Program-made: the position numbers and the translations under genes
Sequence record: OP172786
Reading direction: 5' to 3' (one strand)
Length of the DNA stretch: 64,000 nucleotides
Source: Escherichia phage ECO07P3
In this document: positions 35,770 to 44,560 of the stretch, one piece after another
How positions within the stretch are numbered: position 1 is the first letter of the stretch
How the letters are laid out: every line of letters begins with the position of its first letter
The notes under the pieces: model-generated
The model's input: the letters and a program-made list of their open reading frames with translations, nothing else
What the model was told of the DNA's origin: nothing
The model's database searches: none

Positions 35770-36051
35770 CTATTTTTCTGAAGCGCCTGAAATATATTTT
35801 TCAAGACGTTGTTTCATCAGCGAGCCGTTCTTAGCGATTTCTTCCGGTTTGTCGCACATACGCAACAAGGCTTCAAGCTTAACGATATCACTGGTGCGCT
35901 CAAATTTGCGAGTATCTATCTTACTAGCAAGTTCAGAAATACGTGCTAATAGACTTTCAGCTTCAACCAAAGCTGCACCTAGCTTAGTTGCAAATGTGTC
36001 AGTAGCTTCGTTAAGAATAGATTCTGATAAAAATTCACTATATGTTTTCAT
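35770..36051 (-). CDS. internal protein (IPII-like) with capsid-targeting sequence
   Basis: Start set at [10 protein letters not shown] (36051); the LSE tripeptide at residues 8-10 fits the prohead-protease cleavage pattern; position upstream of e as for T4 ipII/ipIII. Confidence 0.6.
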
Positions 36052-40374: not shown

Positions 40375-40417
40375 TTTATTCTCCAAGTTGTTTTCTGTAT
40401 CAGTAGTTGATAGTTGT

Positions 40418-40447
40418 ATAGTACCACGGAAGAACATGGATGTAAAC
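40418..40447 (-). promoter_or_regulatory. T4-type early promoter (GTTTAC-N18-TACTAT)
   Basis: Minus strand GTTTAC ATCCATGTTCTTCCGTGG TACTAT. Confidence 0.55.
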
Positions 40448-40584
40448 AGTTTTGTGAAAAAATTTTAAAAAGTTTTAGGGAATTCTAGGGAAGGGATGGG
40501 CAATTAAAGGATAGGATAATATATTATAAAGGGTATAAACTAAATGATGCCTAGAGAGGCGCGGAAAGGCCTAGATACCAAAAA

Positions 40585-40607
40585 GCCCCAACCTTTTGGT
40601 CGGGGTT
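40585..40607 (-). terminator. intrinsic terminator (RNA AACCCCGACC-AAAA-GGUUGGGGC + U5)
   Basis: Plus gccccaaccttttggtcggggtt preceded by taccaaaaa. Confidence 0.65.
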
Positions 40608-40795
40608 AAGAATGTTATTTGATTTGTTTAGCAGACCAAATGCGGTCTTTAATAATTTTTTGGATGTCTTCAACATACTCAAGAGAGTGAACATGTGGAT
40701 TATCTTTGAAACTATAGGCACGGGCTAACTTTTGGCCTTCGGTTTTGATTACTAAAAGCTCTTTAAGGATAGCTTCATACTTAGCGATAATTCCT

Positions 40796-41089
40796 TTAAC
40801 AATATTTTTTTTCTTGTGTAGCTTTAGGATCTGCTTTAGGAGCAGGTTTACCCGAAGCCTTTGCAAAAGCAGCACCAGTAGCAACTAAACTTTTCCAGGC
40901 CATACTAACCGCATTTCCCGTAAATCCTTCGGCTTTCATATCACGAGCAAATTGGAATCGTGATTCATCGGAAGCATCTTTATAGGAATATTTACCCGCG
41001 GCAATGGCAGCTTTTGCAACAGCTTGAATTTCAGTGCTAGATGCTTCATTTAACACCGCTTCATTTAAAAATTGAGCATATGATTTCAT
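40796..41089 (-). CDS. internal-protein-like protein with capsid-targeting sequence; possibly frameshifted
   Basis: MKSYAQFLNEAVL... with LNE at residues 8-10; the ORF ends just after an A8 run (plus T8 at 40805-40812) and a 63-codon ATG-less ORF (40615-40804) continues in the +1 frame. Confidence 0.55.
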   Translation of the reverse strand: MKSYAQFLNEAVLNEASSTEIQAVAKAAIAAGKYSYKDASDESRFQFARDMKAEGFTGNAVSMAWKSLVATGAAFAKASGKPAPKADPKATQEKKYC

Positions 41090-41140
41090 CTTATTTCCTG
41101 TTTTAATTCGTGGTTTTAATATACTTATTTATACTAAAAA

Positions 41141-41162
41141 GCCCCAACCTTTCGGTCGGGGC
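41141..41162 (-). terminator. intrinsic terminator (RNA GCCCCGACC-GAAA-GGUUGGGGC + U5)
   Basis: Plus gccccaacctttcggtcggggc preceded by ctaaaaa; near-duplicate of the 40585 element. Confidence 0.65.
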
Positions 41163-41164
41163 TA

Positions 41165-41470
41165 AGCCTTGCGGCAACCTTGTCGGGGTTCCACCTGCTA
41201 AGGCAAGTGTTTGTACGAAACGCCGGGATTCGAACCCGGTTATTAAGCAGTTGACGCTACTTAATATTTTTAAAAGGCCATATCTCGACCATATCCGAAC
41301 GTTCCGTCAAAAACGCTACTCGGCTTACGGCAAAGATATTTCCTCGAATCGATAATTCTGTGCGCCGTTTCTGCTGTGATGTAAGGGGATATTAATAAAT
41401 CATAAAGATTTATTAAGACCAGTCCTTACACAGGGAACATCAGTCCGACGACTTACCGGTAGCGACCCGG
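41165..41470 (-). ncRNA. candidate stable structured RNA(s) distal to the tRNA cluster (position of T4 rnaC/rnaD)
   Basis: About 300 nt with no ORF between the 41475 ORF and a terminator; contains a canonical T-arm mimic (CCGGG-UUCGAAU-CCCGG) and a perfect 10-bp stem (UUAAUAAAUC/GAUUUAUUAA), but no complete tRNA cloverleaf. Confidence 0.45.
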
Positions 41471-41474
41471 TTTC

Positions 41475-41825
41475 TTAATATTCTTTTAAAGCATCAATCT
41501 GTTCACGACGTTTACGCCATAAATCAATTGCTTCATACGCAGATTCAGCATTTCGAATTGGACGGCATTTATATAAAGACTCGTGATTTTGATATTGCGT
41601 AGATAACGTAATTTTATCTAAAAGGTCTTTACGTTCAAAGTATTCGTAACCATCTAAGCCAAATGAACGATTTTTGAGAAATTGCCAATGACCATATTCG
41701 TTTTCGACATAAACATAATCCGCGTGTTGATAAAGCAAATTAATTACACGTTCAGAAATAACAGTGTCATTGTGATTAAAATAAAATGTTAAATCATGAA
41801 CTACTAAATAAACATTACCTTTCAT
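41475..41825 (-). CDS. hypothetical protein
   Basis: 116-aa ORF, ATG at 41825 after GAGGAAAAT, between tRNA-Arg and the ncRNA region. Confidence 0.55.
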   Translation of the reverse strand: MKGNVYLVVHDLTFYFNHNDTVISERVINLLYQHADYVYVENEYGHWQFLKNRSFGLDGYEYFERKDLLDKITLSTQYQNHESLYKCRPIRNAESAYEAIDLWRKRREQIDALKEY

Positions 41826-41841
41826 ATTTTCCTCACTTAAT

Positions 41842-41917
41842 TGGTCGAGGCAGTAGGGATCGAACCTACGACCTAGGACTTAGAAGGTCCTTGCTCTTCC
41901 TTCTGAGCTATGCCCCG
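41842..41917 (-). tRNA. tRNA-Arg (anticodon UCU)
   Basis: 76 nt incl. CCA; manual cloverleaf: acceptor CGGGGCA/UGCCUCG, D-stem GCUC/GAGC, anticodon loop CUUCUAA, T-arm GUAGG-UUCGAUC-CCUAC. Confidence 0.85.
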
Positions 41918-41921
41918 TAAT

Positions 41922-41997
41922 TGGGGTGACCGATGGGAGTCGAACCCATGACTACGAGAATCACAATCTCGAGTTCTACCAACTGAACTACGGCCAC
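41922..41997 (-). tRNA. tRNA-His (anticodon GUG)
   Basis: 76 nt incl. CCA; acceptor GUGGCCG/CGGUCAC, discriminator C73, anticodon loop UUGUGAU, T-arm AUGGG-UUCGACU-CCCAU; no encoded G-1. Confidence 0.75.
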
Positions 41998-42111
41998 ATT
42001 AATACCTACTCCAACAATCAAGATGTCTTCACACGAAATTAAGAGAAGAGTGATCAGTTCAACCCCGATAATCGCGTCAAGTAGATATTAATGTGACAAT
42101 TGTCACAAATT

Positions 42112-42186
42112 TGGCGGACGTGATAGGATTCGAACCTATAACCAATCGCTTAACAGGCGATCGCTCTGCCATTGAGCTACACATCC
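42112..42186 (-). tRNA. tRNA-Asn (anticodon GUU)
   Basis: 75 nt incl. CCA; acceptor GGAUGUG/CACGUCC, anticodon stem AUCGC/GCGAU with loop CUGUUAA, T-arm AUAGG-UUCGAAU-CCUAU. Confidence 0.8.
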
Positions 42187-42190
42187 AAAT

Positions 42191-42277
42191 TGGTGGGGAG
42201 TGATGGAGTCGAACCACCCGAGTCGCAATGACAATGGATTTACAGTCCACACCGCTACCTCTACGGGATAACTCCCC
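42191..42277 (-). tRNA. tRNA-Tyr (anticodon GUA), long variable arm
   Basis: 87 nt incl. CCA; acceptor GGGGAGU/ACUCCCC, anticodon stem GUGGA/UCCAU with loop CUGUAAA, long variable arm, T-arm GGUGG-UUCGACU-CCAUC. Confidence 0.7.
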
Positions 42278-42290
42278 TTAATTCTTAATT

Positions 42291-42365
42291 TGGTGGCCCT
42301 GGGTGGAATTGAACCACCATCTGGCGATTATGAGTCGCTTGCTTGAACCTTCCAGCTACAGGGCC
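42291..42365 (-). tRNA. tRNA with CAU anticodon (Ile-type as in T4, or Met)
   Basis: 75 nt incl. CCA; acceptor GGCCCUG/CAGGGCC, anticodon loop CUCAUAA, T-arm GGUGG-UUCAAUU-CCACC. Confidence 0.75.
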
Positions 42366-42366
42366 T

Positions 42367-42442
42367 TGGTGCTGATTGACGGAATCGAACCGCCGACATC
42401 CTCATTACAAGTGAGTTGCTCTACCTACTGAGCTAAATCAGC
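42367..42442 (-). tRNA. tRNA-Thr (anticodon UGU)
   Basis: 76 nt incl. CCA; acceptor GCUGAUU/AAUCAGC, anticodon loop CUUGUAA, T-arm GGCGG-UUCGAUU-CCGUC. Confidence 0.85.
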
Positions 42443-42447
42443 AAAAC

Positions 42448-42537
42448 TGGCGGAGGCGATAGGATTTGAACCTATGAGTCGCCGGAGCGACTGCCGGTTT
42501 TCAAGACCGGTGCATTAAACCACTCTGCCACGCCTCC
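42448..42537 (-). tRNA. tRNA-Ser (anticodon UGA), long variable arm
   Basis: 90 nt; sequence GGAGGCGUGGCAGAGUGGUUUAAUGCACCGGUCUUGAAAACCGG... with anticodon loop CUUGAAA and T-arm AUAGG-UUCAAAU-CCUAU. Confidence 0.85.
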
Positions 42538-42539
42538 AG

Positions 42540-42613
42540 TCTCCATACAAGGATTTGAACCTTGGGCCTCCTGATCCCAAATCAGGCGCTCTACCAAACT
42601 GAGCTACACGGAG
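42540..42613 (-). tRNA. tRNA-Pro (anticodon UGG), CCA not encoded
   Basis: Acceptor CUCCGUG/UAUGGAG, anticodon loop UUUGGGA, T-arm CAAGG-UUCAAAU-CCUUG; abuts tRNA-Ser as in the T4 Pro-Ser dimeric precursor. Confidence 0.85.
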
Positions 42614-42623
42614 TAAATTAAAT

Positions 42624-42697
<74 letters not shown>

Positions 42698-42702
42698 AAA
42701 TT

Positions 42703-42789
42703 TGGTGCGAGAAGTGGGACTCGAACCCACAAGGAAATCATTCCGCAGCATTTTAAGTGCTGTGCCTTTACCAATTTGACCATTCTCGC
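42703..42789 (-). tRNA. tRNA-Leu (anticodon UAA), long variable arm
   Basis: 87 nt incl. CCA; acceptor GCGAGAA/UUCUCGC, anticodon stem CAGCA/UGCUG with loop CUUAAAA, T-arm GUGGG-UUCGAGU-CCCAC. Confidence 0.85.
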
Positions 42790-42790
42790 G

Positions 42791-42863
42791 CTGGGAATAA
42801 AGGACTCGAACCTTTGCATCCTGGAATCAAAATCCAGTGCCTTACCAACTTGGCTAATTCCCA
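42791..42863 (-). tRNA. tRNA-Gln (anticodon UUG), CCA not encoded
   Basis: Acceptor UGGGAAU/AUUCCCA, anticodon loop UUUUGAU, T-arm AAAGG-UUCGAGU-CCUUU; 1 nt from tRNA-Leu as in the T4 Gln-Leu precursor. Confidence 0.85.
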
Positions 42864-43911: not shown

Positions 43912-44220
43912 CTATTTTATTCCGCGTGATGCAATTGTGTTCTGCCGTTTAACACCAGTTTGTTTAAAGTCATGATTGTCGATTTGATCGGTACGAGCAA
44001 CACCGAATGATGATTTAATCTTAGCTTTAGATCCTTTAGTTATAGAAATAAACATCTCGGAAGCCCCTTTCTTAAAGTCCGAGGCGATTACTTCAACGCC
44101 GTTCTTAGCAAGTGACCTCAGAATTGCCTCCGCGTACTCATCATCAAGACTCGCCTGAGTATTAATAACGAATGTCTTTGGTGCAGCCGCTTCATTGATA
44201 AATTCTTGATATGTTTTCAT
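43912..44220 (-). CDS. internal protein (IPI-position) with capsid-targeting sequence
   Basis: Start set at MKTYQEFINE (44220); INE tripeptide at residues 8-10; track ORF begins 4 codons upstream. Confidence 0.6.
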   Translation of the reverse strand: MKTYQEFINEAAAPKTFVINTQASLDDEYAEAILRSLAKNGVEVIASDFKKGASEMFISITKGSKAKIKSSFGVARTDQIDNHDFKQTGVKRQNTIASRGIK

Positions 44221-44287: not shown

Positions 44288-44560
44288 TTATTTTAAATAA
44301 ATTGCATATTTTTTATAACCAGCCGTCTCGTGACGCAGACCTTTTTCATTAGCAAAGCGTTCAATATTATTAATTTGATTCTGATCAAGTTCTGAAATAT
44401 CAAATACAAAAAAGTTTCGTTTATTTCCTAACGTTACATGATTCGTCAAATCAATGTTATAAAGATGATTTATATTATCAATCATAGTCTTAACAGATTT
44501 GCTAATTTTTACTTCTTCATTAAGAGCAGATTCAACGATAAACTCTTTGAAAGTTTTCAT
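44288..44560 (-). CDS. internal-protein-like protein with capsid-targeting sequence
   Basis: MKTFKEFIVESAL... with IVE at residues 8-10; ATG after TAGGAAAATAAA. Confidence 0.55.
   Translation of the reverse strand: MKTFKEFIVESALNEEVKISKSVKTMIDNINHLYNIDLTNHVTLGNKRNFFVFDISELDQNQINNIERFANEKGLRHETAGYKKYAIYLK

Follow-up and report, generated by a model that had tools for sequence, protein, structure and literature searches.

Why should a small open reading frame (ORF) of a T4-like phage end inside a run of eight A residues, with a further 63 codons lying open in the +1 frame directly behind it? The window analysed here, a stretch of 64,000 nucleotides from Escherichia phage ECO07P3 (sequence record OP172786), contains such an arrangement, and a sequence-only reading of it had left three explanations side by side, namely a homopolymer sequencing error, a genuine pseudogene, and slippage-prone expression. 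Comparison with related phages and metagenomes now places these in order: a genuine frameshift allele is the most likely, a sequencing error is possible and less likely, and expression by slippage would amount to a minor leak at most. In our judgement the locus probably carries a real, recurrent +1A allele at a Streisinger-type hotspot in a late accessory gene, as opposed to a site of programmed recoding. The arrangement is real and had been read correctly, but a frameshift allele at a probable slippage hotspot in a dispensable, putative internal-protein gene is an ordinary finding.

Anatomy of the locus

The window is Tequatrovirus (T4-like coliphage) DNA, in which the local genes are encoded on the minus strand downstream of a cluster of 11 tRNA genes, and the gene under study is located between rnaC and e.8 (Table 1). 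The 97-aa ORF starts MKSYAQFLNEAVLNEA and ends ...ATQEKKYC*, its last codons lying within the A8 run, and the extent and sequence of this ORF and the position of the run are as the sequence-only reading had described them. From position 40806 the +1 frame reads NIVKGIIAKYEAILKELLVIKTEGQKLARAYSFKDNPHVHSLEYVEDIQKIIKDRIWSAKQIK (beginning NIVKGIIAKYEAIL and ending ...RIWSAKQIK), and the first start-type codon in that frame, TTG, lies at 40884 on the upstream side of the run. Reading of the window sequence finds no ATG, GTG or TTG in the +1 frame after the run, in agreement with the earlier description of a continuation without a start codon, and a separate start for the downstream piece was rejected on this basis. 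A plus-strand gene at the locus was likewise discarded, the only candidates being ORFs of 38-47 aa without homologues.

Table 1. Features of the split gene and its surroundings, in window positions.
Feature	Position	Strand	Content or basis
Truncated ORF, 97 aa and stop	40796..41089	(-)	Leader, three-helix N-terminal domain, Lys/Pro/Ala linker, then out-of-frame YC
A8 tract (frameshift site)	40805..40812	(-)	T8 on the plus strand, A8 in mRNA sense
+1-frame continuation, 63 codons and TAA stop (40617-40615)	40615..40806	(-)	Encodes the C-terminal helical hairpin of the ancestral product (157 aa)
First 10 codons, MKSYAQFLNE, a capsid-targeting-like leader with an L-x-E protease motif	41060..41089	(-)	Sequence
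AGGA, Shine-Dalgarno-like, 6 nt before the ATG	41096..41099	(-)	Sequence
TATAAATA, match to the T4 late-promoter consensus, 36 nt upstream of the ATG	41126..41133	(-)	Motif match only
Upstream intrinsic-terminator hairpin (AGCCCCGACCGAAAGGTTGGGGCT then T run), left repeat copy	41140..41163	(-)	Terminator scan
Downstream intrinsic-terminator hairpin after the fused gene, right repeat copy	40586..40605	(-)	Terminator scan

The signals around the gene are shared with annotated relatives. The same late-promoter motif is annotated as a T4-late promoter in SA21RB, and terminators are annotated at the upstream site in G28, SA21RB and Kha5h and at the downstream site in G28 and SA21RB; the terminator scan finds none between the two ORF pieces. 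The RB32 record describes the orthologue as 'flanked by 34 bp imperfect direct repeat'. The two bracketing terminator hairpins in the window are near-identical, each reading CCCCGACC-rAAA-GGTTGGGG followed by a T run. The gene, lying with its own late-promoter motif between repeats, has the look of a self-contained cassette, open to gain or loss through recombination between them.

Upstream of the cassette, the stretch at 41170-41470 on the minus strand, which separates it from an ORF at 41475-41825, corresponds to rnaC (species 1 RNA) as annotated in RB68 and Kha5h. Some tRNA-like features can be made out in this stretch by eye; ARAGORN makes no call in 41170-41470, and a search of 40400-41900 with Rfam 15 returns only tRNA, the rnaC/rnaD region being without an Rfam model. 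The content of the tRNA cluster (41842-42863, minus strand) varies among relatives. The window holds 11 tRNAs, including those for His, Asn and Tyr, and G28 and others have a GIY-YIG homing-endonuclease gene between tRNA-Met and tRNA-Arg and fewer tRNAs.

The two pieces belong to one protein family. In a PHROG search, the 97-aa ORF matches phrog_2280 (annotated function unknown) through its residues 1-95, at profile positions 1-90 with E = 7e-37, and the 63-aa continuation matches the same profile at positions 90-172 with E = 7.6e-17. A single 474-nt ORF is annotated in AR1, fFiEco06, SA21RB, RB32, RB68, phiD1, pSs-1, HP3 and many others, with orthologues that include RB32ORF133c, AR1_137 and fD1 g140. 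Because both halves fit one PHROG family end to end and the ORF is fused in relatives, chance does not account for the arrangement. The tract is A7 in AR1 and SA21RB and takes the interrupted form GAGAAAAA in fFiEco06, RB32, RB68, phiD1, CHD2BS1 and Kha5h, all of which have the 157-aa ORF. Since relatives carry A7 or the interrupted form where the window carries A8, the window holds a +1A frameshift allele of the 157-aa gene. Deletion of one A from the window sequence gives a 157-aa protein that differs by only two residues from common in-frame alleles; the suggestion that loss of one A would fuse the pieces thus stands, as the single ORF of these relatives indicates, with the length amended from about 158 to 157 aa. 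The comparison with related phages that had been proposed finds hundreds of Tequatrovirus records with one 157-aa ORF, and in none of the relatives compared is there a further gene downstream that begins at a start codon of its own, an arrangement that had been named as evidence against a split gene.

It follows for annotation that the 97-aa 'hypothetical protein', called in the window and in no fewer than a dozen GenBank phages, represents the beginning of a 157-aa gene that has been frameshifted, and that the 63-codon tail is not a separate gene; the value of this result lies mainly in annotation and curation.

Tract length in isolates and metagenomes

The gene is present in 400 GenBank phage records (Tequatrovirus). 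An 81-nt query placed across the junction matches 330 records, and the length of the matched stretch serves as a readout of tract length. In an evenly spaced sample of 60 of these 330 records, 56 have the in-frame length, two have A8 and one has A9 (ECO4), the remaining record being unscorable with a match that covers 79 of the 81 bases. Among the best 60 of the 330 junction matches, ten have the A8 length, and all nine of those that were fetched carry A8 together with the 97-aa ORF (G28, SF2-1, AUBRB02, PYps55T, ph0021, PsgM02F, T4_ev240, teqhal and EC128). In-frame alleles are found in every lineage examined and make up ~95% of records, while out-of-frame tract lengths account for ~3-5%. An IMG/VR pattern scan across the junction returned three contigs, all A7, which are too few for allele frequencies.

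Frameshifted tracts are found well beyond isolate genomes. The exact 97-aa protein of the window is encoded by 15 contigs, among them metagenome scaffolds that stem from six samples or more (sources include MUNK18 SAMEA104467247, four LIXU21 samples, SRR14000879 and ERR2241744), and 8/8 fetched copies have A8. A8 is also present in a divergent lineage on a MEGAHIT metagenome contig. The A6 form is found in SfPhi01 (LC465543), in PP355091 and in the independent Logan assembly DRR175055, as well as in a lineage of 77% protein identity from two metagenomic datasets, and A9 is found in ECO4 (NC_054911), a record labelled 'partial genome'. Out-of-frame lengths are therefore a real minority state that is not tied to one laboratory or sequencing platform.

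These data bear directly on the suggestion that the phage truly carries A7 with an intact 157-aa gene and that the extra A is a homopolymer miscall in the record. There are good grounds for raising it. The A8 tract is the only homopolymer of eight or more bases in the 64-kb window, and the longest run is where miscalls concentrate; moreover, the repaired protein is so close to common in-frame alleles, the downstream frame is perfectly open, and the in-frame state prevails in ~95% of records. Nevertheless, A8 is not confined to the window record, and independent data on related genomes carry it: at least nine independently sequenced isolates and Illumina metagenome assemblies of several samples have A8, and ph0021 and PsgM02F are two separate records of the same A8 haplotype. 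Genuine A8 thus circulates at a few per cent, which is probably above the consensus-error rate at an 8-mer. In addition, the other 64 A/T runs of six or seven in the window show no comparable split, most of them lying deep in long ORFs or in intergenic DNA. We consequently regard a miscall in the window record as unlikely, and we would like to emphasize that some of the GenBank A8, A6 or A9 records could themselves be errors.

Two further observations concern individual records. PsgM02F (OR584013, our L008), recorded as a 'Pseudomonas phage' of Pseudomonas coronafaciens, is identical across the gene, A8 included, to ph0021 (L007), a Tequatrovirus of E. coli from Brazil, and its host assignment looks doubtful. 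One homologue (P0007) looks like a further disrupted allele, with a frameshift within the N-terminal domain.

The homopolymer content of the window as a whole is also of note: runs of 5, 6, 7 and 8 bases number 314, 59, 5 and 1. The number of A/T runs declines over lengths 5-8 much faster than the roughly threefold step that separates shorter runs, and this strong depletion of long A/T homopolymers would fit selection in this genome against slippery runs.

Recurrence is evident from the sequences that surround the tract. Frameshift alleles occur on four immediate flanks (GCTACACAAG/TATTG, GCTGCACAAG/TATTG, GCTGCACAAG/TATCG and GCTACGCAAG/TATTG), and A7 counterparts that match two of the four are present in the sample. 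The frameshifted copies represent ten downstream haplotypes, with a synonymous divergence of 0.23, and 11 distinct full haplotypes. Some copies differ at the tract alone. The A7 copy L047 and the T4_ev240-type A8 copies have 0 differences at the 465 positions compared outside the tract; among the metagenome samples listed, none contains both the A7 and the A8 form of one haplotype. Similarly, SfPhi01 (L020, A6) and ECO4 (L022, A9) have 0 differences at 465 other positions, and ph0021 and PsgM02F, as noted, share an identical A8 haplotype. The A6 and A9 tracts of SfPhi01 and ECO4 differ by three bases and lead into the same wrong frame, with products of 111 and 112 aa; this pair could reflect stepwise growth of the tract without reversion, or an error in one of the records. 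Of 23 in-frame copies sampled, 12 have the GAG-interrupted form and 11 have A7, and the interrupted form was not found among the frameshift alleles.

Replication slippage, as we infer it to be the cause of this variation, would act as follows. At the start of the C-terminal module, Glu-Lys-Asn is spelled GAA AAA AAT, which gives a run of A7, and strand slippage during DNA replication (the Streisinger mechanism) would repeatedly add an A to this run or remove one. In T4, simple repeats are known hotspots for frameshifts, and the longer the run the stronger the hotspot (Streisinger, summarised in PMC4120765). In the A8 allele of the window, translation would stop after two wrong residues (...QEKKYC*), leaving a 97-aa precursor that keeps the leader, the N-terminal domain and the linker and lacks the C-terminal module. 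The continuation would then be neither a separate gene nor the product of a programmed mechanism, and slippage of RNA polymerase or of the ribosome on the run would supply a trace of full-length protein at most. The truncated product may retain the function of the N-terminal domain.

The state of the tail indicates how long such alleles last. The 63-codon downstream frame is open in 22/22 frameshifted copies, its pN/pS is 0.078 in frameshifted copies compared with 0.087 in in-frame copies, and every amino-acid variant of the frameshifted copies also occurs in in-frame proteins. An open downstream frame and an unchanged pN/pS imply that each frameshift is young or reversible. Frameshift alleles that arise often, are young, and revert or vanish before the tail decays are what a fast-mutating tract would be expected to produce. 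Unchanged purifying selection on the downstream part would be equally expected if the C-terminal module were still being made.

Protein modules and a candidate head internal protein

In the AlphaFold model of the 157-aa protein (pLDDT 75), the leader forms a helix and residues 18-71 form a domain of three helices; the Lys/Pro/Ala linker is disordered, and residues 88-154 fold as the C-terminal helical hairpin. The tract encodes residues 93-95, at the start of the C-terminal module. The N-terminal domain alone is common to the homologues P0010, P0011 and P0013, and the C-terminal module alone to P0014. As the modules are independently shuffled, the A8 product amounts to a clean loss of the C-terminal module and not to a scrambled protein. 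In P0013 the N-terminal domain is joined to a different tail of 120 aa, while in P0014 (94 aa, precomputed Pfam assignment PF26894) the last ~30 residues of the C-terminal module follow an unrelated N-terminus without a targeting leader. Judged from these sequences, the gene appears to be modular as well as repeatedly damaged.

The family is narrow. A profile search of 1.84 billion representatives yielded 11 matches, all of them in one small T4-like family; a Pfam search returned only sub-threshold noise (Shikimate_dh_N, HEAT_ECM29); and comparison of the AlphaFold model with BFVD and the PDB gave matches to the family itself and no structural analogue at E < 1.

The most likely role of the gene product is that of an internal protein of the head, packaged and then injected, a reading drawn from its leader, the late-promoter motif, its composition and a virion-detected orthologue. 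Positions 4 and 7 of the T4 IPIII capsid targeting sequence are critical for targeting, and positions 8 and 10 for cleavage (PMC9026906). The leader of the present gene carries Y4, F7, L8 and E10, and in the family alignment M1 and F7 are invariant and Y4 is nearly so; a second LNE motif lies at residues 13-15 of the 97-aa ORF. The protein is also basic and lysine-rich, as expected of internal proteins, with a pI of 9.46 and 21 Lys in 157 aa for the repaired form and a pI of 9.24 for the truncated form. The orthologue fD1 g140 (157 aa, 67942-68415) is flagged PPAP by LC-MS/MS in Table S3 of PMC8309999, in a virion preparation of low specificity, which contained 137/277 phage products and included enzymes such as thymidine kinase. 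In the same supplementary table (PMC8309999) this gene has 'No' in the last column, which, read without a header, we take as 'no T4 homologue'. The designation of the ORF as an internal-protein gene with a capsid-targeting sequence is thus plausible, given the four leader residues and the presence of an orthologue in fD1 virion preparations. Its position between rnaC and e.8 is presumably not one of the T4 ip loci.

Three further leader-bearing ORFs are found in the window on the minus strand, at 35770-36051 (its 16 leading protein letters are not shown), 43912-44220 (MKTYQEFINEAAAP...) and 44288-44560 (MKTFKEFIVESALNEE...), and two of the three have a second L-N-E motif a few residues past the first. 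By the same leader signature, the window would encode at least four candidate internal proteins.

T4 Ip1, Ip2 and Ip3 each specifically inhibit a distinct GmrSD type IV restriction enzyme (PMC12373910), and an anti-defence role for the present protein, by analogy with these three, is only a guess. The flagging of phrog_2280 as a candidate internal protein adds a family to a class that is of current interest through the GmrSD inhibitors (PMC12373910), and the natural A7, A8 and A6 variants provide ready-made, isogenic-like material on the role of the C-terminal module.

Recoding, switching and comparison with known systems

An undecayed tail in every frameshifted copy also invites the thought that the A8 allele still yields a useful 157-aa protein, either because RNA polymerase drops one A or because tRNA-Lys slips by +1 on AAA-A. 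Either process would find A8 slippery, and slipping by +1 on the first Lys codon would restore the exact wild-type ...QEKNIVK... sequence. Against this, the split layout is not conserved, ~95% of relatives being in frame, and the A6 and A9 alleles would require a correction opposite to that of A8. Stimulatory elements are likewise missing from the places where they were sought: the fold of 40730-40850 has an energy of -15.7 kcal/mol (z = -0.28 versus shuffles), which gives no sign of RNA structure near the tract, and no Shine-Dalgarno-like (GGAGG-like) stimulator is seen in the sequence upstream of the A8 run. It is the host polymerase that transcribes T4 late genes. A systematic reporter study found that E. 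coli RNA polymerase did not slip on runs of fewer than eight A, and that rescue by deletion, the event needed on A8, was undetectable for the same enzyme on the poly(A) runs tested (PMC6260861). The locus therefore has the slippery sequence of a recoding site and lacks both its conserved split layout and its stimulatory element. Programmed recoding is not supported, nothing indicates more than a background of full-length product, and productive slippage on A8 strikes us as highly improbable.

The recurrence of the tract variants suggests a different possibility, in which the tract is a reversible switch between a full-length injected protein and one without the C-terminal module, of benefit across hosts with differing defences. 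Several features are in keeping with such a contingency (phase-variable) locus. A6, A7, A8 and A9 all exist, and identical haplotypes differ in tract length only; frameshift alleles arise in many different backgrounds and last in natural populations; the tract marks the border between two independently shuffled modules, so that the 'off' state is a clean domain deletion; the inhibition of distinct GmrSD enzymes by T4 Ip1, Ip2 and Ip3 (PMC12373910) offers a setting where variable expression could pay; and downstream constraint is kept, as expected if lineages switch back. However, about half of the sampled in-frame alleles carry the synonymous GAG, which removes the switch. Furthermore, A7 is the likeliest spelling of Glu-Lys-Asn by the codon usage of the genome (p = 0.67 for GAA-AAA-AAx), leaving no sign of selection for the tract, and an out-of-frame share of ~3-5% fits mutation-selection balance. 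Recurrent tract polymorphism among identical copies is thus observed, and selective maintenance of the tract is not, and we consider a contingency locus quite unlikely.

One specific form of this idea is that A7 acts as a switch whose A6, A8 and A9 states deliver the N-terminal domain alone, being favoured on hosts in which the C-terminal coiled-coil module is a disadvantage (for example, if a defence system senses it) and reverting elsewhere. If true, it would explain the repeated natural frameshift alleles without decay, and a switch of this kind would be somewhat new as an idea for T-even phages; none of the data call for it, and we hold it to be very unlikely. The preferred reading, a frameshift allele produced by replication slippage, makes this a site where a Streisinger hotspot can be observed in nature, as standing variation among wild T4-like phages.

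The locus can accordingly be set beside four kinds of known system. With recoding sites such as those of dnaX, IS elements and Citrobacter tssM, it shares an A run at the junction of overlapping frames whose fusion is a conserved protein; it differs from them in that the split is rare and derived and that no stimulatory element is present.

The poly-G tracts reported in Campylobacter phages exemplify the hypermutable homopolymers of phage genes. As in those tracts and in bacterial contingency loci, tract length here toggles the frame, variants have recurred independently, and haplotypes differ at the tract only. In contrast to them, codon usage accounts for the tract, which at 7 bases is short, a synonymous change has removed it from half of the alleles, and there is no evidence of selected switching.

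With the internal proteins of T-even phages (T4 Ip1/IPI, Ip2 and Ip3, and the polymorphic Ip genes of related phages) the candidate shares the MK[ST]Y..F[IL].E leader and the L/I-x-E prohead-protease motif. It resembles them as well in being a small, basic, lysine-rich protein from a non-essential accessory gene that is patchy in T-even phages, in its upstream late-promoter motif, in the presence of several such genes per genome, and in having an orthologue flagged as particle-associated in a virion preparation. Beyond the leader, however, it has no sequence or fold similarity to Ip1, Ip2 or Ip3.

Finally, the Streisinger hotspots of the T4 rII and e genes show the same single-base gain and loss at a homopolymer, in both directions, with events limited to the uninterrupted run and in a T4-type phage with a T4-type polymerase. 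The difference is that they were laboratory mutants, whereas the variation described here is a natural polymorphism of wild isolates and metagenomes.
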